A stretch of DNA of 64,000 bases. Source: an uncultured Candidatus Saccharibacteria bacterium (GTDB taxonomy: Bacteria; Patescibacteriota; Minisyncoccia; Phycocordibacterales; UBA9973). Location of the stretch: NCBI GenBank assembly GCA_964646765.1, contig CAZYIA010000001.1, positions 341,621 through 405,620 of the forward strand. Direction: 5' to 3'. Below the pieces are notes generated by a model, which made no database searches, was not told where the DNA came from, and worked only from the letters and a program-made list of their open reading frames with translations. Below are positions 45,217 to 56,846 of this stretch, in pieces (position 1 is the first letter of the stretch; each line of letters opens with the position of its first letter). The position numbers and the translations under genes were made by a program.

Positions 45217-45288
45217 TCCGCGGTAGCTCAGCGGTAGAGCGTCCCGCTGTTAACGGGAGGGTCCCTGGTTCGAATCCAGGCCGCGGAG
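45217..45288 (+). tRNA. tRNA-Asn(GTT)
   Basis: Acceptor stem TCCGCGG/CCGCGGA. Anticodon stem TCCCG/CGGGA with loop CTGTTAA. T-arm CCTGG-TTCGAAT-CCAGG. Confidence 0.85.
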
Positions 45289-46995
45289 CATAGTAGAAAA
45301 AACTGGCGAAAACTCGCTGGTTTTTTCGTTTAAGCTTTTCATATCAAGCCAATTCTTAGGTTCGGACTTTTGAAATTCGCTTTCCATCAAAGAAACTACT
45401 TCAAAGAGCTTCTCAACTGATTTTTGCTTGATAACACTAACTTTTTCTTCATCCCACACTAGGTTCGTACCAAGTCTATGAAGTAGTGATTTTTTAGCTT
45501 TTAATTGACCATTCTGCATTACATCAAAGAACTCTTGAGACAGGTCAATAATCTCATTTGCTCTCTTGGTCCAGTCAAAGGTATTAGTTGGCTTATTAGA
45601 GGTCTTAAAACGCTCCTCAAGGTCTCTTAAATCGCTTTTGTATTCATCTTCGGTGATAAGCTCATTAGCCAATATTTTACGCATCTTCCTCTTCATATCC
45701 TCATATTCATCCGATTGCTTTAAGGCTATTTCTTCCTTAAGAAGATTTTCATTAATCTCATTGTCTCTAAGCTCGCTTATGAACTTTCTAGCCCAATCAG
45801 CTACTTTCTGAGACATAGGTATTTTACCTTTTGCATCAGCAAGTAAGGCGGTCATTATTTTGTCAGAATTAATAGACTTAACTCCTAGTTTTTTCTTCTT
45901 ACGAGTTATGTTGTAGTAGTAAGAGTAATCTAAATACTTTGGTTTTTCCATTTTATCTATCTCAATACCACACTGAGGGCATTGAGTTTTGTCTCTGTAA
46001 GGAAATTTGTTTTTGCAATCACAGATAACCTGATACTTCTTATCAAGCCCAATGTATTCACCATTTGGAGAAGATACAAAACCTACAAAAACATCATCGT
46101 GTGTTTGTGTCTTTGGGATATTTCTCCTTTGTAAGATTGCTTTTATTTTATTGTGTTCATCTTCCGTGATTAAGCGAGGCAACTCTTTATCTAGTTCATA
46201 TCTTTCACCTCCATAGAAAAAGAAACCAGCGTAAATTGGGTCTGTAAGTATTTCATATATTCTTGATAGTTGAATGAGTTCACCTCCAATTCTTTTTCTT
46301 CTAACAGTAGTGAGCTTAAGGTCTTTTGTTGCATATCCGTGTAGCTTGCCAGCGGACCATTCACCAGTTAAAAAAGTTTTCAGTATCTGTTGTATTTTGG
46401 GAAGTCTTTCCTTATCAACTAACCATTTTCTATTTCCTTTTTCTTCTGTTTTGTCGTTTAGAAAACCGAGAGAAGCAACTCCGTGAGGTATACCCAGTGT
46501 TGCTTTCTTGGTCTGACCACGTTTAACATTTATAGATAAATCTTTTACAAACTGTTTACCTTGCCCAAATTCAACAGACATAAGTAAAACATTGTCAGTT
46601 GGATAATAAACCTTATCGTGAGTAATAATTGCTTTTAGAACACCAGAGCTTAGTAAATCAATCAACATTCCTCCCTCGGTCATATTTCGTGCCAATCGGT
46701 CAAGTTTCCAACACACAATGGCATCAATTACACCGCTTTTTATCATAGCTATCATCTCGCCAAATTGAGGTCTAACAAACTCTTTTTTGGCTGATTTCGC
46801 TTCTTGAAATATTTGTATAAACTTTGGGAGCTTATAGTACTCAGCAATCCTTTGAGCTTCTTCAATTTGCGAAACCACTGAAAGCATTTGCTTATCTTCA
46901 CTCTCAGAAGACTTTCTGTTGTAATTTACTGGCTTTAATTTTGTGAAATCAAGTTGTATATAATTATTCATAAATAAAAATGAGGTAACGACCAT
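45250..46995 (-). CDS. Large serine recombinase/integrase, paralogous to the one at 17345..18919
   Basis: Catalytic segment NRKSSESEDKQ and W.LDRLARN, a recombinase domain, and a zinc ribbon CDCKNKF...CPQCG. The last 13 codons overlap the tRNA-Asn 3' half. Confidence 0.85.
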   Translation of the reverse strand: MVVTSFLFMNNYIQLDFTKLKPVNYNRKSSESEDKQMLSVVSQIEEAQRIAEYYKLPKFIQIFQEAKSAKKEFVRPQFGEMIAMIKSGVIDAIVCWKLDRLARNMTEGGMLIDLLSSGVLKAIITHDKVYYPTDNVLLMSVEFGQGKQFVKDLSINVKRGQTKKATLGIPHGVASLGFLNDKTEEKGNRKWLVDKERLPKIQQILKTFLTGEWSAGKLHGYATKDLKLTTVRRKRIGGELIQLSRIYEILTDPIYAGFFFYGGERYELDKELPRLITEDEHNKIKAILQRRNIPKTQTHDDVFVGFVSSPNGEYIGLDKKYQVICDCKNKFPYRDKTQCPQCGIEIDKMEKPKYLDYSYYYNITRKKKKLGVKSINSDKIMTALLADAKGKIPMSQKVADWARKFISELRDNEINENLLKEEIALKQSDEYEDMKRKMRKILANELITEDEYKSDLRDLEERFKTSNKPTNTFDWTKRANEIIDLSQEFFDVMQNGQLKAKKSLLHRLGTNLVWDEEKVSVIKQKSVEKLFEVVSLMESEFQKSEPKNWLDMKSLNEKTSEFSPVFSTMLRGLDSNQGPSR

Positions 46996-47425
46996 TACTT
47001 AAGTTGCTACACCAAGTGGGTCATTACCTCGTTTTTATCCACAAAAATACTTAATTATAGTAAAAGTATTTTTATGATATTCACCTGGTGTAGCACTTAC
47101 ATTTTATCACAGTTGTAAGTATCTGTTTATCTTTACTCTATCCAAAAAGATAGTTAAAAGCCCTATATAATAGATGCTTTACTTAACCGTTTGATGATTA
47201 TTTTTATTCTCATCTCAAGTACGGAAACTATATTTTCCTTATTCAGTATTGCTATTACCACAATACAACTTAGACCTTATGTAGTTCTTAGTATCGGGTA
47301 GGATTATAGTTTTACATTGTTCCTATTTATCCCGCTTTTCTTTACTCCCTCCAACTAGGATTGCTGTCCCAGACATCAGTTATAAAGTCCTTATATTTTT
47401 ACAGCTATAAGGTCCGCCCACCGTT

Positions 47426-47471
47426 AGAGTCATTACTGACTCTGTACTGTCTACTGCAATAGACAGTACAG
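47426..47471. repeat. Twin perfect palindromes inside the AT-rich noncoding block
   Basis: AGAGTCA-TTAC-TGACTCT is directly followed by CTGTACTGTCTA-CTGCAA-TAGACAGTACAG. Confidence 0.6.
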
Positions 47472-47660
47472 AATTAGCAATTATTTTCTATTCTTAACTT
47501 CAAACCTTGAGCCATAATTTCAAGAAACAACTGACCTAAATGGTCCAGTTCTTCTTCTGATAAAGAATTAACAAAAACCTCTCCATATTCTTTCTGGAGA
47601 ACTTCTTTAAGTTCAGTTAATGCTTTGTTACTAAGACTCATAGTTTGAGTCCTCTCGTAT

Positions 47661-47686
47661 GCAAAAAGCAGTCTAGAGGACTGCTT
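47661..47686 (-). terminator. Intrinsic terminator for the minus-strand gene ending at 47724
   Basis: The minus strand reads AAGCAGTCCTCTAGACTGCTTTTTGC. Confidence 0.5.
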
Positions 47687-47723
47687 ATATTGTCGTATTT
47701 ATCTCTATTTACCTCAGCCCCTT

Positions 47724-48557
47724 TTAAGGGATTTGCTTAAATAATCCAATTTTAATTTGAGTCTTATTTTTCTTTGCTTTTTCTATAATTGCCTTAACAT
47801 AGTCAGCCTTATAAGGTCCATTTTTAGGTGATTTTAGATTAAATCTGTGGAAAAGATAATGTGCTATTAATTCGTATTTTGCTCTATACAAGGCAATTCT
47901 TTTACCGTTTGGTGAAAAATGTGATTTGTATTCTGTGGGAAATTTTAAAGCAAAAGCATCTCTTATTTCTTCAGAGCTAAATGTATCTAAAACACGGACC
48001 CATAAATCAAAATTATAACTTTCTTCTTTTCTAGCACGATTTTTTTGTCTTTTAATGCTAACTCCAATTTCCTTGAACTTATTTATTAGGTTATTTTCTT
48101 TTTTATTTAAAAAATCTGCAATTTGTTTTTTGTCTCCTCCTGGAAGTATTTTTAGATAAAGTGCCTTTTCTTTGTCGTTACTAACAAACCAAGAGATATT
48201 CTCAAAGGGTACTTCTGTATCGTATTGAATACCACCAAATAAAAGAATTTCTTGCACTACAAAATTCCAATCCTCTCTCATAATCAGGTATTGGTATTCA
48301 GGATATTTTTTTGCTAAAGCCTTACGAAAATTTACAAAAGCTTTTTCAAGCTTAGAATTTGTGTTGATTATATTACTAACAAAATCTTTTCTATACAAAA
48401 AAGAAGTCCATTCATATTTATCAATCAAAAAATCAAATTGATGACCATCTATACCACCAATTTTTCTGTACTTTTCAGCGATAACTTCAGTTTCTAAACT
48501 GTCTATTTTTTCTAGAGCTAATCTTTTTCTTTTGTCACTTGGTGTAGCATTTTTCAT
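47724..48557 (-). CDS. Hypothetical protein encoded immediately downstream of res
   Basis: The ORF is 277 aa and lysine-rich. No motif was recognised. Confidence 0.4.
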   Translation of the reverse strand: MKNATPSDKRKRLALEKIDSLETEVIAEKYRKIGGIDGHQFDFLIDKYEWTSFLYRKDFVSNIINTNSKLEKAFVNFRKALAKKYPEYQYLIMREDWNFVVQEILLFGGIQYDTEVPFENISWFVSNDKEKALYLKILPGGDKKQIADFLNKKENNLINKFKEIGVSIKRQKNRARKEESYNFDLWVRVLDTFSSEEIRDAFALKFPTEYKSHFSPNGKRIALYRAKYELIAHYLFHRFNLKSPKNGPYKADYVKAIIEKAKKNKTQIKIGLFKQIP

Positions 48558-48565
48558 AAACGAGT

Positions 48566-51214
48566 TTATAATAATTCTTTTTCAAAAGTTTCTCCAAAAA
48601 GATTTTCATCTCCATTGTTGTAAAAAGGCATACCCCAGACAGTGTATTTTCTATCCTCCCAAAGCTGTTCAATTTTATGTTCTTTTTTAAGGGATACCAA
48701 GAAGTTTTGCTTCCAAGCATCTGCTTGTTTTAAGTGATTTCCTTTTGGTTCTACAAACACCTGATAGTGAAGACTCTTTGGTTTTGCTTTTTGATATAGG
48801 AATAGTACGAAATCCGGTTCCAGTGGTCTTCCATCATCAAAGTTATAGAGTTTGAAAAATCTTTCGTTACGAACCAAGTAAACTTCATCATATTTTTCAC
48901 GAAGTTGGTTATAGATTTTATCTATATATTTTATGAAATACTTTTCTTCTGAAGTACCAAAGCAGTCATTGAATACATACCAAGATTTATTACTGAGGTC
49001 CAAATAAATACTAGTTTCCTGAGCATTATTAATTGATTTACCAAACTCCTTATCCTCACTTTCATTTTCAGCAAAATTAAGGACCTTTTCTGAAATTTTA
49101 TCCTTAATCATATAAGGTTTAAATTCCTTGCTTCCTTTATACTCTAGTTTTTCACTAGATACGCTCTTAGAAACCTGTTCTAGAACCTGTAAAACAGCGT
49201 CTAGGACATCATCAGGGCTTAAGGCTTCTAGTTGGCTAGATAAGCCTGAAATAGTCATCTTAAGGCTTCCTAGGTAGTTTTTATCAGTTATAAACTCATC
49301 TAAACTCTCAAGGTTCGGGAAATAAGTTTTAAGGTTTGAGAATGAGTAAAACTCAAGCTTATAGATAGCTTTTTTAACTACTGTTTTATTAAAATCTTTG
49401 ATAGAAAAATCTTTCTCCGCCTTGTTTACGCCTTTCTTTGTTTGTTCTTCAAATAGTCCGCTAGAGAGGTTAAATCCGGTTCTAAGAGAAACTCGGTAGA
49501 GAGTGTCTCTTACTGAAGACGGTAATCCGAAAACATCTTCTCTGGTATATTTTTGTTGTTCATTTAAGAAAAGCATACCGGATTTATAGAATTTACTTTC
49601 TTTAAAATCATCTTTAATTTTAAAATCTCTTTTGACTGTCTTATCAGCAACAATACCGGTTTTTACTAGAGCAGAATTAAGCTCTTGAATGTATTTGGGG
49701 TTATAAGTACTGTGATAGTAAAGCTCCTCACAAATTCTCATTTCATTTGTTACATCTCCGTCAAATTTTCTCTTTGATGCTTGGTCAGTCTCATTAAGTT
49801 TAAATGGACAGTATCTAGCACCACGCCCAATAAGTTGAGCTTCTTTTATAGTTGTTTCTCCTGGTTTATTGTTTTTTGCATCACGAGTATCATAAAGACG
49901 AACAATATCAAAAAGATTAAGGACATCCCAACCCTCATTAAGTTTATCTACAGCGAAAACAGCTCTATACTCATTGTTGGGAGCTTCTAGGGTATTAATA
50001 GCTAATTGTTTCTCTTCACTTTCTTCCTTACTGTTTACTGAGATAGTTTTTTCAGCGGAAAAATCTTCCTTTAGTTCAGCTACTAAGTTCTCAAGTGTAA
50101 TTTTCTGAGTATCAAAATACTCAAACATTTTAACTAGGACCTCGTCTTTTGCATTAGCTTTAATACTACTTAATTTTTTAACAGTAAGTGCTTCTATTCC
50201 CTTAATAAACTCTTCTTGAAAGTCTTTACTATCAGCAATAGTCTTTGATTTGAATAACAGGACCGGTTTAATAACTTGTTTATTTCTCTCAAAAATCTTT
50301 CTACGATACTGACTGAGTAAGATAGCTTGTAATGCACGGTCAAAAAGGTCCGCATCAGCCTGAAGAACTTTTACATCTTTAGAATATCCATCTATACGAA
50401 ACTGCTTCAAAGGATAATCAAATACAAGTCTTTCAGCGTACTTCTTGGCTATGTTTGTATTAGTAAAATCAACAGTAGCGGTAAATTCTAAAAGTACATT
50501 CTGAGGGTTAGCATTAAAAATTCTGTTTACTGTACTTTCCCAAGAGATAATCTCTTCAGCTTCTTCTTTAGACACCTGACCGTTAATAGCCACACCACCA
50601 AACACATCGGTACGGAGACCAGCTTTTGTCTCAACATTTATATGGTGAGCTTCATCAGAAATAAGTACTATTTTCTTATCTTGAAAATCATCATAAGTTA
50701 GACTATTTTCCTGAGGATTTGTGAGTCTTGTATGAAGTCCTTGAATAGTAGAGAAGCAGATATTAATACAGTCATCATTACCGGCTTGGAAATTAGTTAC
50801 TTCTTTGAGAGTTATTTTCTTATCTCCCAAAGAAACATTCTTATTAAAAAGATATTTGATTGATGAGTCGTTGAAAAAATTATCTCGTGTTTTATCTATA
50901 ATATTTGTACTGTTTACGAAAAAGAGAAAGTTTCTATATCCTTGTTCATACAGATAGAGAATAAGACCAGCCATAATAAGTGTCTTACCGCTACCAGTAG
51001 CCATATGGAAAAGGAGTTGAGATTTGGCTGGTTTACCATCAAATTTTTCATTCCAGTAATTTAGGAAATACTGAAAAGCCCTCTCTTGATAAGGTCTAAT
51101 TTCAAAGTTCTGATTGAGGTTTTTAGTTATAAATTCAGGGACTGGAGTAGCTTCTATTCCACGCTTACCAAACTCAGACTCAAGTATTTTGTTTAATGTC
51201 TTAATCTCGTCCAT
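48566..51214 (-). CDS. res: Type III restriction enzyme Res subunit
   Basis: Helicase motifs I (HMATGSGKT) and II (LISDEAHH), a long C-terminal region, and 14-nt overlap coupling with the mod gene. Confidence 0.8.
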   Translation of the reverse strand: MDEIKTLNKILESEFGKRGIEATPVPEFITKNLNQNFEIRPYQERAFQYFLNYWNEKFDGKPAKSQLLFHMATGSGKTLIMAGLILYLYEQGYRNFLFFVNSTNIIDKTRDNFFNDSSIKYLFNKNVSLGDKKITLKEVTNFQAGNDDCINICFSTIQGLHTRLTNPQENSLTYDDFQDKKIVLISDEAHHINVETKAGLRTDVFGGVAINGQVSKEEAEEIISWESTVNRIFNANPQNVLLEFTATVDFTNTNIAKKYAERLVFDYPLKQFRIDGYSKDVKVLQADADLFDRALQAILLSQYRRKIFERNKQVIKPVLLFKSKTIADSKDFQEEFIKGIEALTVKKLSSIKANAKDEVLVKMFEYFDTQKITLENLVAELKEDFSAEKTISVNSKEESEEKQLAINTLEAPNNEYRAVFAVDKLNEGWDVLNLFDIVRLYDTRDAKNNKPGETTIKEAQLIGRGARYCPFKLNETDQASKRKFDGDVTNEMRICEELYYHSTYNPKYIQELNSALVKTGIVADKTVKRDFKIKDDFKESKFYKSGMLFLNEQQKYTREDVFGLPSSVRDTLYRVSLRTGFNLSSGLFEEQTKKGVNKAEKDFSIKDFNKTVVKKAIYKLEFYSFSNLKTYFPNLESLDEFITDKNYLGSLKMTISGLSSQLEALSPDDVLDAVLQVLEQVSKSVSSEKLEYKGSKEFKPYMIKDKISEKVLNFAENESEDKEFGKSINNAQETSIYLDLSNKSWYVFNDCFGTSEEKYFIKYIDKIYNQLREKYDEVYLVRNERFFKLYNFDDGRPLEPDFVLFLYQKAKPKSLHYQVFVEPKGNHLKQADAWKQNFLVSLKKEHKIEQLWEDRKYTVWGMPFYNNGDENLFGETFEKELL

Positions 51215-53108
51215 AGAATTTTTTATTCAAAGCTATGTCTTCTTTAGAGATTTTATATGTCTTATCTTCAATTTCAGAATAAGGTACATAGAGCATATTT
51301 TTGTCTAGGGTAGAGATTAAGAATTTTTGTTGGTCCTCAAATGAAAGACTCTCAAAATCTTTCTTAGTGGCATCAATTTCTTCAGGCTTTACTTTATAAC
51401 TCAAAAAAGCAGTCTTCTTCATTTCATCCCATACCTTAAGAAGTTCTTTTGTGTTTTTTGAGTCTTGGATTTTATCTACAAAAAGCTGGTTAGCTTGTGT
51501 TAGTTCAGCATAAACAAAACTACCTTTCTTTGCCTCTTTTATTACTCTGTATACTCTTTCTCTAGTAACTTTTTCTATGTAGTCCATTTGTTCACAGATA
51601 ATAAATTTTCTATTACCTTTATCTTCATCATTCAAGGCAAGTACAGCGTGTGCTGTTGTACCACTTCCACCAAAAAAGTCTAAAACAATGTCATCATCAG
51701 AAGTCATTATCTTTAAAGTATCAAGAACGGTGTATAAAGATTTTGGATAACTAAATAAATTACCCCCTAAGATTTTTTTGAGTAAGTTTGTGCCATTAAA
51801 TTCAGACTGATATTTTTTGTCTGTCCACACATTCTTATAAACCTGCTGTTCTCTTAGTTTGTGATAAATTACTATTTTATTATTTTCCTCTTTAGCAATG
51901 AAATAATCATCGTGATTTAATTCATCAAATGATTGCTTGATATTTTTCCAAGCCATTTCTTTACCGTTATTGGTAATAGGAAAAATCTCGTGATAACCTG
52001 ATTTCTTTTCAGAAGTTATTGTTTTTAAATCTTTGCTTACATAAATCGGATACCAGTTATTTGGCTTATTTTGTCTAGACCAAACTGTTCTGGCTCTTAG
52101 GAATGGCTCATATCTAAAACTACCATCATCATCACTTTCTGAGAAAGACTCTTTAACAGCCTCATCAATAGCAACTTGGTTAAATTCTGCTTGTTCAACA
52201 TTCTTTGCGTATACAAGCATAAATTCACTATTTGGAGAGAAAAATTTAGAAAGATTTCTACCTTTTGGATTATGTAAGACAGTTACAACTCCCACACGGT
52301 TTTCTCTACCAAAAATTTCATCGGCTAAAGCACCTAAATAAAATAATTCGGCGTGGTCAATGGCAATAGCAATAAATCCATCCTCAGTAATAAAATCTTT
52401 AGCAACTTCAAGCCTATTTTTCATAAAAGTAAGCCAGGTTGAATGTTTAAATGTATTGTTATATGCGAAAGTATCACCATCAGAACCTGTGTTGTATGGC
52501 GGGTCAATATAAACAAGTTTAACTTTTTGCTTATATTTATTTCTTAGAGAATATAGACTTAACAAATTATTTCCCTTAATAATCAAATTATCCTGAAGAC
52601 TTATTTCATTGACTGTTTTTGCTCCTTTTTCATCAAATTTTTTAAAGTTTGTAAGAACTTTTGGTTCAAGAAGTTTATCAATTTCGTCCGGTGCAAGTGT
52701 CTCATTCCAGAATATCTCCTCGCGATTTGCATCTTCCTGATTTTGTCCACCCTCAAGAATAGCGTCTTTATATGGAAAAGCTAAAACAACCTCATCGTTG
52801 TCTGTGAGATATTGCTTATCAGAAGTAAGACCTACTTTATTTTTGTACTCAGTAAAACTATCCGGCAAAAATTGTTTATTAGAAACAAAACTTTGAAATT
52901 TCGCTTTATCAAAAATAAGGACACCATCTACTTCCTGAAAGAAAGTTTTATTTAGGTCCTTTGAGGAACGGAGTATTTTAAGCAAATCAACATCAAGTTG
53001 AAGAGCAAGTTCAATAACTTTGTTTTTAGCAAGTTTACCGTCAATAACAAGACGGTCATCTTTTGAGAGTTTTTCTATAAGTTCTTGGTGTAGCTTCATA
53101 TAAAGCAT
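51201..53108 (-). CDS. mod: Type III modification methyltransferase Mod subunit (N6-adenine, beta-class)
   Basis: Motif IV VYIDPPYN precedes motif I DFFGGSGTT. Confidence 0.8.
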   Translation of the reverse strand: MLYMKLHQELIEKLSKDDRLVIDGKLAKNKVIELALQLDVDLLKILRSSKDLNKTFFQEVDGVLIFDKAKFQSFVSNKQFLPDSFTEYKNKVGLTSDKQYLTDNDEVVLAFPYKDAILEGGQNQEDANREEIFWNETLAPDEIDKLLEPKVLTNFKKFDEKGAKTVNEISLQDNLIIKGNNLLSLYSLRNKYKQKVKLVYIDPPYNTGSDGDTFAYNNTFKHSTWLTFMKNRLEVAKDFITEDGFIAIAIDHAELFYLGALADEIFGRENRVGVVTVLHNPKGRNLSKFFSPNSEFMLVYAKNVEQAEFNQVAIDEAVKESFSESDDDGSFRYEPFLRARTVWSRQNKPNNWYPIYVSKDLKTITSEKKSGYHEIFPITNNGKEMAWKNIKQSFDELNHDDYFIAKEENNKIVIYHKLREQQVYKNVWTDKKYQSEFNGTNLLKKILGGNLFSYPKSLYTVLDTLKIMTSDDDIVLDFFGGSGTTAHAVLALNDEDKGNRKFIICEQMDYIEKVTRERVYRVIKEAKKGSFVYAELTQANQLFVDKIQDSKNTKELLKVWDEMKKTAFLSYKVKPEEIDATKKDFESLSFEDQQKFLISTLDKNMLYVPYSEIEDKTYKISKEDIALNKKFYGRD

Positions 53109-53263
53109 TTTACCAAAAATTCTTTAATTAAGAAAGAAAATTTGCTATACTGAAAAAACAATTTAATAGACGACCTAACCCGATAGGAATTTCCTAGCGA
53201 TATGGTCATAAACACCGCAAAAGTATAAAAACCCCTTAGTCTAGGGTCACTTTTGCGGTCACA

Positions 53264-53620
53264 TTGGGAAACTGGTGTGGGTGGGTAATACCATCGTCCT
53301 GGCTAAGGGATTTTTGTATGGAAAATTCTATGTCAGGCTATAAATCCGCAAAAGTTTTTATGACAAAATATGATATTGGTTTAATGTTGATTATCTTTGC
53401 AATAGGTTTTGATTTAGTTTCTTTAAGAAAAGAGGTTCGTAGATTAAGTATCAAACTTATGAATAAATTAGATAAGCCAACAGAATTAGAAAAGCAAATT
53501 GAAGAGAGAAAAAAGAAACCTTATTTAACAAAAGAGGAATTAGATAAGGTTATGACTCCTGAGGAAAAAGAAATAAGAAAGAAATTATTCGGCAGTGAAT
53601 ATCCAAAAGAAATTGATTAA
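53264..53620 (+). CDS. Small membrane or coiled-coil hypothetical protein
   Basis: One TM helix and a K/E-rich C-terminus. Confidence 0.3.
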   Translation: MGNWCGWVIPSSWLRDFCMENSMSGYKSAKVFMTKYDIGLMLIIFAIGFDLVSLRKEVRRLSIKLMNKLDKPTELEKQIEERKKKPYLTKEELDKVMTPEEKEIRKKLFGSEYPKEID

Positions 53621-53621
53621 A

Positions 53622-54023
53622 TTAGAGGTTGTCTTTAAATTTATTTACAATTCTGTCAGAAAGAACATCATAATCTAATCCTCTAGTGAACATAGGTGGA
53701 AAATCGTAGAGGTCCGAAGTATCAAACCTAGCATTTGAACTCCAATCATTTTTAAACTTCCTTTCAAGTATCCAGGCTGTTGCTTTCCAATCTTTTTCTC
53801 CAGCTTTTTCAATGCGTTTGAGTAGTTTTTGTTTGTACTCAATCATTTTTTGACCCATTTGTTCTGAAAATTCTGAATTGTGTCTTTTCCATAAACAGAT
53901 GGTATCTTCAGAAATACCAGCAAGTAAGGCACAGTCACGCTGTGTCATTCCATTAGCTAAACCATCAAGAATTATTGCAACTCTTTCAGGTGTCATCTTA
54001 TAAGGTTTGTTAGTTTTCGCCAT
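53622..54023 (-). CDS. HTH protein resembling the N-terminus of phage terminase small subunits
   Basis: MTPERVAIILDGLANGMTQRDCALLAGISEDTICLWKRHNSEF. Confidence 0.45.
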   Translation of the reverse strand: MAKTNKPYKMTPERVAIILDGLANGMTQRDCALLAGISEDTICLWKRHNSEFSEQMGQKMIEYKQKLLKRIEKAGEKDWKATAWILERKFKNDWSSNARFDTSDLYDFPPMFTRGLDYDVLSDRIVNKFKDNL

Positions 54024-54119
54024 AGCAAATAAGTTTAATTACTTAATAATTGCTATTGCAGTAGCTCTTTACATTATATCAAAAAGTCGTGAAAAATGTT
54101 AAAGTAGACTTACTTTTCA

Positions 54120-55238
54120 ATGCAGAATACAACAGACAACAAAAATATACCTGACATAAACAAAACTCTTGTTGCCCCAAGTGTGGCACTTGTAATTGTT
54201 GGTAAAACTTCATTAAAAAAGAAGCGAAGAAAAAGAAAAAAGGATATAAAAGAGTACTTAAGAAGAAAAGCTGAAAAAGCACTCCGTAGAAAGAGAAGAA
54301 AAAAGTTAAGAGGTAAAAGACAAAGTCTGATACTAACCCCGAAGAAAAAGAACAGTCACACAAAAAAGTCAGTACCTGCTAATTTTTCTTTAGTAAATAA
54401 TACTGAAGAAGTTATTGGGTATTTTAAGGATGTTGGAAAAACTTTTGCTAATAGAGAGCAAGTAGCTTTTGACCTAGAGGGAGTTGAACAACTTTCACCT
54501 GATGCGATTGCTCTTCTTGTTGCAAAGGTTAATGATGTTAATTTTACACGAGGTCTAAATATGATTGGAAACAGTCCTCTAAAAGCGGAAATAAAGAAGA
54601 TATTTGATGACTCTAGATTTCTAGAACACGTGCAAGCCAGATATACTCCTCCACCAAATGAAAGTAATTTATTAATCCACCAAAAAACACAGAAAAAAGT
54701 TCATCCAGAAATTGCTAAACAAGTTGGAGAACTTGCGGTCCGGCATACTTTTAAAGATACAAGAAAGTTTCAGCCAATTTTTAAAATGATGATTGAGTGT
54801 ATGGCAAACACAGACAATCACGCCAACCTAAAATTAGAAGGTTTTTATGACTGGTGGATATTTACTTATTGTGACCCAGATACTAACATAACATCATTTT
54901 CTTTCTTGGACTTGGGTGTAGGTATCTTTAATAGTAATCCTGTTAATAGCTACAAGCAAAAATTTTTGAACACTATTCAATCTGCAACAGGTTTAAATGT
55001 GAGTAATAATTCAAAATTAGTTCCAAAGCTATTCTCTGGAGAAATATATACATCAAGAACTAAGGATAAAACTAGAGGACAAGGACTTCCTAGTCTTAAA
55101 GAATGTGCTGAGAACTCTCATATTAAAAATATGACAATTATCACAAATAATGTTAAAATAAGCTTACCTAGCTTAGTGACAGTTGAATTAAGTAATAAAT
55201 TTAATGGCACTTTTTTGTATTGGGAGTTACACCCTTAA
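54120..55238 (+). CDS. GHKL-family (histidine-kinase-like) ATPase with a highly basic N-terminal tail
   Basis: N-box ECMANTDNHANL, G1 box FLDLGVGIF and G2 box TRGQGLPSL. The N-terminus is KKKRRKRKKD...RRKRRKKLRGKR. Confidence 0.45.
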   Translation: MQNTTDNKNIPDINKTLVAPSVALVIVGKTSLKKKRRKRKKDIKEYLRRKAEKALRRKRRKKLRGKRQSLILTPKKKNSHTKKSVPANFSLVNNTEEVIGYFKDVGKTFANREQVAFDLEGVEQLSPDAIALLVAKVNDVNFTRGLNMIGNSPLKAEIKKIFDDSRFLEHVQARYTPPPNESNLLIHQKTQKKVHPEIAKQVGELAVRHTFKDTRKFQPIFKMMIECMANTDNHANLKLEGFYDWWIFTYCDPDTNITSFSFLDLGVGIFNSNPVNSYKQKFLNTIQSATGLNVSNNSKLVPKLFSGEIYTSRTKDKTRGQGLPSLKECAENSHIKNMTIITNNVKISLPSLVTVELSNKFNGTFLYWELHP

Positions 55239-55576
55239 TTAATATGGAACAGATTAAAATCATAGTTGCGACAGAATTCTCAGATGCACCTGGTGCAAGG
55301 TTTATTTCCGATGGAGAAAATTCAGGGGAACTTTTCTATAATACTTTACTGAAAGATAGGTTTACTGAGGCAAAAAATGCAAATACCAAACTCCTCATAG
55401 ACCTTGATAATACTTGGGGTTATGCTTCTTCTTTTATATCAGGTGCTTTTGGTAGACTAGCTGATGAATTCGGTAAAAATACTGCAATTAAACATCTTGA
55501 TATTAAATCAGATGATGACCCTACTTTGTTCCAAAAAATAAAAGATGAGATTAACAAGTCTAGTAATAATGCTTAA
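55220..55576 (+). CDS. Small partner protein of the GHKL ATPase (possibly STAS/DUF4325-like)
   Basis: It is 118 aa and overlaps the ATPase gene at the 3' end, which suggests translational coupling. It contains IIVATEFSDAPGARF...LLIDLDN. Confidence 0.35.
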   Translation: MGVTPLINMEQIKIIVATEFSDAPGARFISDGENSGELFYNTLLKDRFTEAKNANTKLLIDLDNTWGYASSFISGAFGRLADEFGKNTAIKHLDIKSDDDPTLFQKIKDEINKSSNNA

Positions 55577-56165
55577 ATCTATTGGTAAACATCTCCATAC
55601 AATCATTATCTGGATACTCATTTTTCTAGGTGGATTTGTTGCTGGAAGAATAGTTAAAGATATTCCATATTTAACTCTTGAAACAAAAGTTGGCATAGGC
55701 GATATTGCAAATTTTGTCATTGCGACTGTGGTTGCTGTGCTTATCCCTGTATCGCTAAGTCCTATTCTTAAAAACAAAAGAGTTATTAAAGACTTTCTTA
55801 TTGATGAGGTAAAAGACTGTATTGATTTCCTAACCTCAATTAAAGCATCTGTAGATGATATGGCTATTAGAGGAAGTAGCGAGGAAAGTGACCGTGTGAA
55901 AATAAATTCAATGATTGCTCAAGACTTAGGAATGAAAATCGGCTCTCTCGCAGAACAGCTTGAGGTATCTTTCAAAAATAAGTGTCCTGAAATCAAAACA
56001 GCTCTTACTGAGAGATATGGCGAATATTGGAGAGAAATGACTGGTGGTGACCTAATGTCACAGAATTTCACATTCAGTCTTGGTTTTCGTGCTACACACG
56101 ATAGAAATTACGCTAAATTACAGGCTTGTCTAAAAAAGACAATACACGAGATAAATAACTTTTAG
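55569..56165 (+). CDS. Membrane hypothetical protein
   Basis: Two to three N-terminal TM helices. The start was set at an internal Met to limit overlap. Confidence 0.35.
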   Translation: MLKSIGKHLHTIIIWILIFLGGFVAGRIVKDIPYLTLETKVGIGDIANFVIATVVAVLIPVSLSPILKNKRVIKDFLIDEVKDCIDFLTSIKASVDDMAIRGSSEESDRVKINSMIAQDLGMKIGSLAEQLEVSFKNKCPEIKTALTERYGEYWREMTGGDLMSQNFTFSLGFRATHDRNYAKLQACLKKTIHEINNF

Positions 56166-56336
56166 TTTATATTTTCCTCTATTATTGCCTTTCGCACTTC
56201 GTCCCAAGTTCGGAGCTCTAATTTGACTAAATATTTTTTCGTGTTAAAGTGCGATTGAGCGCTGTTTTTTGATACATGTTTTATGGTTGCCAGAAGAGGC
56301 AATTCCCTTTTGTGGTAACCATAAAACTATTAGAAG

Positions 56337-56846
56337 ATGAACTTATCAAACCCGATCACCACTGTTGATGCAATGGCAGATTTTATTTGGGATTTCAAAT
56401 TGTTATTAGAAATTGAACTTACGATAACAGAACAAAATCCCCATGAGAAGACAGCGGCTGCTATCCAAACTTTTACTAAGCTACACGAGGAACTTAATGT
56501 TATTTTTTTACCAAAATCTACATCTACTACAGCCGGAGGATTTTTCTTACCTGCAGATATGGAGTTCCCTGCTGAAGCAACTGAAATTCTCTCTCAAATG
56601 CAGAAGACAATTAAAGATGCCGAATTTAAGGGACTAAACGTATTTGCACTTATTAAGAATAAGGGTGTCATGGAAGGATATCAAAGCCCTCCTGGCTGTC
56701 ACCGACACAAGTGCCCAAAATGCAATACCATCTGGGAACACAGCGACTCTCCGTGGCAATTTTGGAAAACTCATAATTGCCCTAACTGCGGCACAAAACA
56801 GTTATATCGATACTTTGGACCAGAACAACCTCATCTGTGGGCGTAA
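56337..56846 (+). CDS. Zinc-ribbon hypothetical protein
   Basis: C-terminal CHRHKCPKC...HNCPNCG. Confidence 0.4.
   Translation: MNLSNPITTVDAMADFIWDFKLLLEIELTITEQNPHEKTAAAIQTFTKLHEELNVIFLPKSTSTTAGGFFLPADMEFPAEATEILSQMQKTIKDAEFKGLNVFALIKNKGVMEGYQSPPGCHRHKCPKCNTIWEHSDSPWQFWKTHNCPNCGTKQLYRYFGPEQPHLWA

Follow-up and report, generated by a model that had tools for sequence, protein, structure and literature searches.

The locus

The 64,000-nucleotide stretch of DNA analysed here, referred to as the window, belongs to an uncultured Candidatus Saccharibacteria bacterium (contig CAZYIA010000001.1). Its segment 53264-56846 lies beside a Type III restriction-modification (RM) system and holds six open reading frames (ORFs), A to F. 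All six exist at the coordinates given in a first-pass annotation, which had read them as one block built around a GHKL ATPase and a small partner. The conserved unit, however, consists of three genes and not of six, namely C, D and E, which encode a GHKL protein, a STAS-like protein and a protein with two transmembrane helices, respectively (Table 1).

The linkage of these genes was followed in 80 species-level genome loci and in 16 further loci (L001-L007 and L088-L096), the ORFs of which were searched with C, D and E profiles. In all 77 of the 80 genome loci with sequence available, D comes after C on the same strand, either abutting or overlapping it. Wherever the sequence is available E comes after D, in 73 cases as recognized by an iterated hidden Markov model (HMM) and in one as a positional transmembrane analogue of 205 amino acids (aa). 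The trio is complete in 16/16 of the further loci. Over a total of about 90 loci from many phyla, the three genes keep one order and one strand, and abut or overlap, wherever the sequence is available. Conversely, a search of 87 related loci, among them L001, a syntenic relative of the window, gave no homologue of A, B or F. Of the block first proposed, only C, D and E are therefore conserved together: C has a GHKL fold and in other genomes its two partners are invariably linked to it, while A, B and F drop out.

Table 1. Position of genes, sites and protein domains in the window
Feature	Position	Strand	Remarks
tRNA-Asn	45217-45289		start of the low-GC island
Large serine recombinase	45250-46995	minus	3' end overlaps tRNA-Asn
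277-aa ORF	47724-48557	minus	just downstream of Type III res; no family match in four libraries
Type III RM res	48566-51214		PADLOC match, E 3e-130
Type III RM mod	51201-53108		PADLOC match, E 6e-140
ORF A	53264-53620		one hydrophobic segment, charged tail; no credible family
ORF B	53622-54023	minus	133-aa helix-turn-helix (HTH) protein
Promoter-like site	54068-54097	plus	TTTACA-18-AAAAAT; upstream of C, within the 96-bp divergent region common to B
Gene C ('K')	54120-55238	plus	372 aa; polybasic tail, then a predicted STAS-like domain and the GHKL domain
Polybasic N-terminal tail of C	54204-54356	plus	about residues 29-79
N-terminal alpha/beta domain of C	54357-54704	plus	about residues 80-195; conserved motif L-[ST]-P-D-A-I-A-L-L
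GHKL (Bergerat-fold) domain of C	54705-55235	plus	by motifs and fold
N box of C	54795-54824	plus	E226-CMA-N230-TD-N233-H234-A235-NL, spacing E-x3-N-x3-H-A
G1 of C	54909-54923	plus	D264-L-G-V-G268
G2 of C	55074-55085	plus	R319-G-Q-G322-L
G3-like of C	55206-55211	plus	G363-T364
Gene D ('S')	55244-55576	plus	110 aa, DUF4325 STAS-like
Ser62-Ser63 codons of D	55427-55432	plus	motif WGY-A-S-S-F (ATG numbering)
Gene E	55569-56165	plus	198 aa; ATG start at 55569 overlaps the D stop (ATGCTTAA)
Transmembrane helices of E	~55581-55664, ~55686-55775	plus	hydrophobic segments, residues 5-32 and 40-69
Terminator-like hairpin with T run	56248-56273 (hairpin 56248-56263)	plus	about 85 nt past the E stop
ORF F	56337-56846		weak Zn-ribbon profile matches only; GC 0.40, host-like

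Gene C

The product of gene C is of the GHKL type (Bergerat fold), as judged from its conserved boxes and from the fold matches of an AlphaFold2 (AF2) model. The N, G1 and G2 boxes noted in the first-pass annotation are indeed present, although the N box shows the spacing given in Table 1 and not the pattern 'E..N.NHANL' that had been proposed. In 59 homologues of C, residues E226, N230, H234, D264, G266, G268, R319, G320, G322, G363 and T364 are invariant, and this invariance of the GHKL box residues goes far beyond chance. The model (predicted local distance difference test, pLDDT, 83.9; predicted template-modelling score, pTM, 0.76) folds the C-terminal part of the protein into an alpha/beta sandwich. 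When it was compared with the PDB using Foldseek, SpoIIAB was the best match (five entries, probability about 1.0), followed by WalK and the P4 domain of CheA; the top matches have probabilities of 0.97-1.0 with E-values of only 2e-3 to 2e-2 and target-normalised template-modelling scores of 0.57-0.66. No Pfam family matches C above threshold, the sole match being HATPase_c_5 (E 0.043, 14.2 bits for a cut-off of 22). Likewise, none of the 59 homologues passed a Pfam threshold, and weak HATPase-type matches were seen in 3/59. The GHKL assignment therefore rests on motifs and fold and not on a database family. On these grounds C is predicted to be a Ser/Thr protein kinase of the GHKL/anti-sigma-kinase type.

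Two further regions precede the GHKL domain. The poly-K/R tail described earlier is real and family-wide: it is a compositional trait of C homologues, with a median of 60 aa, 34% K/R and a net charge of +18, and residues 32-66 form one long basic helix in the AF2 model. The domain that comes next has the topology beta-alpha-beta-alpha-beta-alpha-beta in the model. Its segment QVAFDLEGVEQLSPDAIALLVAKV aligns weakly (E 0.078) with the STAS segment QITFIFTHCRFLRPNAVAFLGGTI of VapK, the kinase of the VapKSC system discussed below, and single members of the C family give sporadic weak matches to STAS_2 and DUF4325 in the Pfam scan of the 59 homologues. From the topology, the VapK alignment and these sporadic matches, we infer that the domain is STAS-like. 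Alignment of this domain with the D family by hhalign gave no match, and a sequence search of C, its N-terminal domain and D against all PDB chains returned chance matches only (Trp repressor, coronavirus spike).

The promoter-like site upstream of C is weak, with a consensus match of 9/12 and a frequency no higher than in shuffled sequence; the best promoter-like match of the region, 54102-54073, belongs to B.

Gene D

The partner of C had been described as a 118-aa protein reminiscent of STAS or anti-sigma-antagonist proteins. Its STAS-like nature stands, since D passes the Pfam family PF14213 (DUF4325, 'STAS-like domain') with 34.9 bits against a cut-off of 23 (E 1.2e-8), and the D neighbours of C homologues are also annotated as DUF4325 in the Pfam-annotated neighbourhoods. 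The proposed length is probably too great: the likely start is the ATG at 55244, 5 nt past the C stop, which matches homologues and independent gene calls elsewhere, and the TTG at 55220 that would give 118 aa is less likely.

Ser62 of D aligns with the phospho-acceptor Ser48 of VapS, the STAS protein of VapKSC, by both hhalign and MAFFT. The equivalent position is occupied by S in 60, T in 20 and A in one of 81 distinct D sequences (S/T in 80/81), within a family motif G-Y-x-[ST]-S-F of which the second Ser and the Phe are invariant. Other invariant residues in this set are G67, R27, G32 and F39 (in the numbering of the ORF that starts with the TTG at 55220). The C-terminal I-K-S-D...K-I-K-D-E-I of D aligns by the same two methods with F-K-S-D...K-I-V-D-E-I of VapS. 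The protein consists of a STAS domain along with a short helix, with no HTH match and no DNA-binding domain, and is predicted to be a kinase substrate and an antitoxin-like regulator.

Residues encoded by 55220-55576 also match the profile of phrog_5816 (E 3e-7), which is 441 aa long, over its C-terminal 100 residues only. This match hints at fused kinase-STAS proteins in some viral or proviral genomes.

Gene E

The membrane protein of the first-pass annotation is present as gene E, with a start that agrees with homologues and independent gene calls. Its first transmembrane helix carries a conserved G22-x3-G26, and the second is followed by an all-helical four-helix bundle (AF2 pLDDT 81), which we place, from our own reading of the K/R residues after the second helix, probably on the cytoplasmic side. 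No family was matched by E in Pfam, NCBIfam, PADLOC and other profile libraries, and no PIN match was obtained. Foldseek retrieved for the model generic four-helix bundles only (E above 0.03), which indicate no mechanism. By analogy with vapKSC, where the toxin gene holds the same position, E is predicted to be an effector or toxin. The terminator-like hairpin behind E is likely to mark the end of the C-D-E operon.

Distribution of the trio

Homologues of C number in the hundreds and are 330-380 aa long. A C-profile search of 1.84 billion cluster representatives yielded 3,248 matches at E <=1e-3, which are clusters at 50% identity, and 1,132 at E <=1e-30. C also matches phrog_3364, a family of unknown function (E 2e-27). 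Nevertheless, while the trio is abundant in cells, a tblastn search with C found no match in 50,697 phage genomes and relatives occur in only 2 of 2.9 million viral contigs; because of this near-absence from viral collections, a phage-gene origin was rejected.

Plasmid p4 of Leptospira interrogans (L094; NZ_CP043897.1, 48555-50383) carries a remote version of the trio beside an MNT/HepT toxin-antitoxin (TA) pair. Its kinase has 335 aa and a basic tail, its STAS-like protein 106 aa and its third, hydrophobic/helical protein 166 aa. These are labelled 'ATP-binding protein', 'STAS-like domain-containing protein' and 'hypothetical protein' in RefSeq. A comparable set, comprising a 293-aa protein, a DUF4325 protein and a 125-aa transmembrane protein, has been tabulated for the Francisella prophage KIRK (PMC7924643).

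Relation to known kinase-STAS systems

A literature search on DUF4325, STAS/GHKL anti-phage systems, partner switching in phage defence and VapKSC returned one relevant paper, that on CapKS and VapKSC. In VapKSC, the STAS-GHKL kinase VapK phosphorylates VapS on Ser48, upon which the PIN toxin VapC is released, and the system protects E. coli from phage Bas42 (Chambers et al., EMBO J 2026, PMC13373217). VapS is a STAS domain with a short C-terminal helix, and its C-terminal region is required for VapC neutralisation. CapK (HTH-STAS-GHKL) is a kinase activated by single-stranded DNA (ssDNA) that phosphorylates CapS, a repressor composed of STAS and winged HTH (wHTH) domains; the pair controls the cyclic oligonucleotide-based anti-phage signalling system (CBASS), Bub and further operons, and RM systems adjoin 20% of capKS loci (PMC13373217). 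No variant with a membrane effector is mentioned in that paper, nor in the other literature searched.

Among known systems, VapKSC comes closest to the trio. The two share the order kinase, STAS protein and effector (predicted in the case of E), a kinase whose GHKL domain has an extended ATP lid and is preceded by a STAS domain in VapK and a putatively STAS-like one in C, and an occurrence in defence islands. VapS and D, moreover, are both DUF4325 proteins with Ser/Thr at the position of the VapS phospho-site and a short C-terminal helix of similar motif. With the VapS and VapK sequences taken from the AlphaFold3 (AF3) model file of PMC13373217, VapS falls into PF14213 as D does (E 2.7e-17), and hhalign of the C family with VapK aligns the N, G1, G2 and G3 boxes (E 3.9e-4, probability 35%). 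The two systems differ in their effectors, a PIN nuclease in VapKSC versus two transmembrane helices and a four-helix bundle in E, and in the tail of about 60-80 aa on C, which VapK does not have.

Likeness to CapK/CapS extends to a kinase with a GHKL and, putatively, a STAS domain, followed directly by a known or predicted STAS substrate with a conserved serine, and to a frequent position beside RM systems. However, CapK begins with an HTH where C has its polybasic tail and no HTH match, CapS is a wHTH repressor unlike the 110-aa D, and CapK/CapS precedes a downstream immune operon whereas E alone follows here. A transcriptional regulator of the CapKS type was considered and rejected.

The fold of C is that of the SpoIIAB kinase, and the SpoIIAB N box has a similar pattern, E-x3-N-x3-H-[AG]. 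D, like SpoIIAA and RsbV, is a STAS partner whose serine stands where helix 2 begins. Unlike SpoIIAB and RsbW, however, C has a predicted STAS-like domain of its own, and the trio is mobile, defence-associated and linked to a membrane protein. SpoIIAB/RsbW modules also include a sigma factor and a PP2C phosphatase, neither of which was seen near the trio in the window, in seven Pfam-annotated neighbourhoods of C homologues or among the recurrent neighbour clusters described below (neighbours that occur once were left unannotated). A sigma-factor partner-switching module was rejected on this basis. Of the partner switching that had been suggested for this locus, the pair of a GHKL-type protein and a STAS-like partner is supported and the sigma-factor sense is not.

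A likeness of genomic logic links the trio to PrrC/EcoprrI and similar suicide modules, which lie embedded in Type I RM loci. PrrC is an ABC-ATPase-like anticodon nuclease; its proteins are unrelated to those of the trio, for which RM coupling is not obligatory.

Genomic setting

In the window the trio lies in a stretch of about 11 kb (45217-56330) with a GC content of 0.29-0.36, compared with about 0.42 in the flanks, the low-GC part ending near 56300. This low-GC stretch, the tRNA-Asn, the large serine recombinase and the Type III RM pair together identify the region as an integrated island with defence cargo. A search for attL/attR direct repeats at the island flanks found no long repeats, as expected for a serine recombinase. 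The Type III RM genes are transcribed divergently from the trio, about 1 kb away. A unique, near-perfect palindrome of 50 bp (56278-56327), with two abutting arms of 25 nt that are 84% complementary, sits precisely where the GC content changes between E and F; possible roles are those of an att site of the serine recombinase or an operator for F.

As for the other ORFs, the HTH of B is confirmed. B resembles the N-terminal DNA-binding part of small terminase subunits (TerS-like; phrog_4102, E 8e-18) and, weakly, an RM control protein. It may regulate locally or be left over from a phage or satellite. The Zn-ribbon claimed for F is borne out in its motifs but not beyond weak profile matches. 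No homologue of the 277-aa ORF was found in the 87 related loci; beside it lies an ORF-poor stretch of 728 bp (46996-47723) with a perfect hairpin near 47440-47470.

The syntenic relative L001, with a histidyl-tRNA synthetase (HisRS) 77% identical to that of the window, has the trio at the same tRNA-Asn in a different island with different accessory genes, and no RM system is present in that island. A 420-aa protein without a Pfam match, encoded at 6739-8001 of L001 and also found in L002 and L003, has a stop that overlaps the start of C, which suggests that it is an optional fourth operon gene in this version of the locus.

Beyond these relatives, 707 neighbour ORFs from 78 loci were clustered without bias and the recurrent clusters annotated. 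The recurrent neighbours, given as raw counts, are HsdM (10), a large serine recombinase (8), HsdR (7), HsdS (6) and a tyrosine integrase (4), and a PADLOC scan of 109 neighbour proteins returned redundant Type I RM models only. In six loci (L020, L029, L070, L077, L081 and L089) the trio abuts an hsd operon or sits inside it, on the same strand and with gaps of -10 to about 270 nt. The gene hsdS lies 19 nt upstream of the trio in L020, 1 nt upstream in L070 and 11 nt upstream in L029, where hsdR lies downstream; hsdR overlaps the C start in L081, with hsdM 269 nt after E, and in L077 hsdM lies 104 nt after E. By analogy with PrrC, such hsd-embedded trios suggest a second-line module coupled to restriction. 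In one Pfam-annotated neighbourhood a Type I RM operon ends 76 nt 5' of C and an integrase follows E. Further immediate 5' neighbours include an Eco57I-type methylase, a REase-ARP nuclease and a Schlafen/AlbA_2 protein. An RM neighbour is lacking for many trios.

Other defence and mobility genes accompany the trio in single loci. A Flavobacterium locus has KwaAB (Kiwa) and a Gabija-like pair adjoining it, an integrative and conjugative element (ICE) combines it with Gabija, AbiEi and a STAND ATPase, and another homologue locus contains a helicase pair of 256 aa and 815 aa. TA pairs found near trios are HicAB (in one locus together with IS66 copies), RelB/PIN and MNT/HepT, and some trios form minimal islands that consist of a serine recombinase and the trio alone. 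In three unrelated genomes (L027, L082 and L087), an AAA ATPase of about 367 aa and a subtilase of about 783 aa (Peptidase_S8) form a pair within 10 kb of the trio, which may be another defence-island module.

A possible mechanism and its alternatives

The defence role first suggested for this locus is plausible in view of the VapK/VapS-like pair and of the RM, Gabija, Kiwa, integrase and TA neighbours. The explanation that we prefer, and to which we give an even chance as a whole, is that C-D-E is a self-contained, horizontally mobile three-gene operon that would work in the manner of VapKSC, as a toxin-antitoxin-like defence module in which a kinase gates a membrane effector. In an uninfected cell, D would be bound to the cytoplasmic bundle of E and keep it inactive. 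The kinase C would be switched on by a nucleic-acid cue arising from phage infection or restriction, and sensed via the STAS/GHKL groove, the polybasic tail or both; C is homologous to kinases activated by ssDNA, has a polybasic tail and is associated with RM, which makes such a cue possible. Active C would then phosphorylate D on Ser62, and phospho-D would release E, which could oligomerise in the membrane and depolarise or permeabilise it. The outcome would be growth arrest, either in an infected cell (abortive infection) or in one from which the island has been lost. In the window, the operon is cargo of the island of about 11 kb, inserted at tRNA-Asn by the large serine recombinase. A more far-reaching version, which appears possible but is put forward tentatively, is that the trio represents an unnamed and widespread anti-phage system in which the kinase senses nucleic acids of infection or of ongoing or failed restriction and unleashes a membrane disruptor, as a PrrC-like second-line suicide switch that is often hard-wired to RM, even in Patescibacteria.

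Several observations weigh against this explanation. The binding of E by D, the toxicity of E and the trigger of C are all drawn by analogy, and the modelled bundle of E would suit a sensor or scaffold equally well as a toxin. Judged by their sequences, C and D are families separate from VapK and VapS, because VapK reaches no more than 11 bits with the HMM of the C family, over G1-G3 only, and VapS no more than 15 bits with that of the D family; C is thus distant from VapK. No significant sequence match supports the STAS label of the N-terminal domain of C. Furthermore, the aromatic residue that stacks on ssDNA (F54 in VapK, W68 in CapK) aligns with a variable, non-aromatic column of C, and the trigger of C may therefore differ from that of VapK and CapK. 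The neighbour counts are raw numbers and not enrichments over a genomic background. C, D and E match no model of PADLOC-DB v2.0.0 at E <=0.1, with the Type III RM genes as positive control, and the literature contains no published phage-protection data for the C-D-E family.

Among the alternatives, a signalling (partner-switching) module is the strongest, though we consider it unlikely. Here E would be a membrane sensor or scaffold that does not kill, and C and D would pass on a signal from the envelope or from infection. This signal might act on the adjacent RM system, or on a host factor to which the kinase or its basic tail binds. The bundle of E does resemble those of sensors and adaptors (Tar ligand-binding domain, FAT domain), the classical pairs SpoIIAB/SpoIIAA and RsbW/RsbV are regulators, CapK/CapS is a transcriptional switch with the RM association mentioned above (PMC13373217), and trios often lie inside Type I RM operons. 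However, at 110 aa and devoid of a DNA-binding domain, D is like VapS and not like CapS, and the recurrent neighbours of the trio include neither a sigma factor nor a phosphatase nor any other conserved output gene. The wide variation of its neighbours argues against one specific regulated partner, and since the trio also occurs alone with an integrase it must be self-sufficient.

Somewhat less probable still is that the same biochemistry serves the addiction or stabilisation of mobile islands and plasmids and not anti-phage defence. Trios are carried by integrase-bearing islands, an ICE and a Leptospira plasmid, other TA pairs (HicAB, RelB/PIN, MNT/HepT) stand alongside, and the syntenic relative has its trio at the same tRNA-Asn hotspot, all of which would fit such a role. 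Against it, a kinase input implies a regulated trigger and not mere differential stability, the homologous VapKSC guards against phage (PMC13373217), and the recurrent neighbours are RM and other defence genes and not genes for replication or partition; the defence and addiction roles are in any case not mutually exclusive. Finally, the reading of A to F as one functional block is essentially excluded: the six ORFs are adjacent in a single low-GC stretch and the divergent HTH protein B could control C locally, but A, B and F have no homologues in the 87 related loci including L001, the terminator-like hairpin lies between E and F, and the GC content of F is host-like.

Significance

The C-D-E trio is a so far undescribed, unnamed and widespread operon, a variant of the VapKSC type with a membrane protein as its third gene, and by analogy it is probably a kinase-triggered suicide or anti-phage switch. 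If this holds true, the pair of GHKL kinase and STAS substrate described in 2026 for CapKS and VapKSC would be a general, modular trigger that gates different effectors, here a membrane protein. A new candidate defence system would also be added, which comprises thousands of sequence clusters from Bacteroidota, Patescibacteria, Proteobacteria, Acidobacteriota, Spirochaetota and further groups and for which PADLOC v2.0.0 has no model. Trios inside Type I RM operons offer a concrete test of the coupling between first-line restriction and second-line abortive infection. To our knowledge, few defence systems beyond RM are known from Patescibacteria, with their reduced genomes. The conserved polybasic tail, in turn, suggests that the kinases of this family have a sensing or targeting mechanism unlike that of VapK and CapK.

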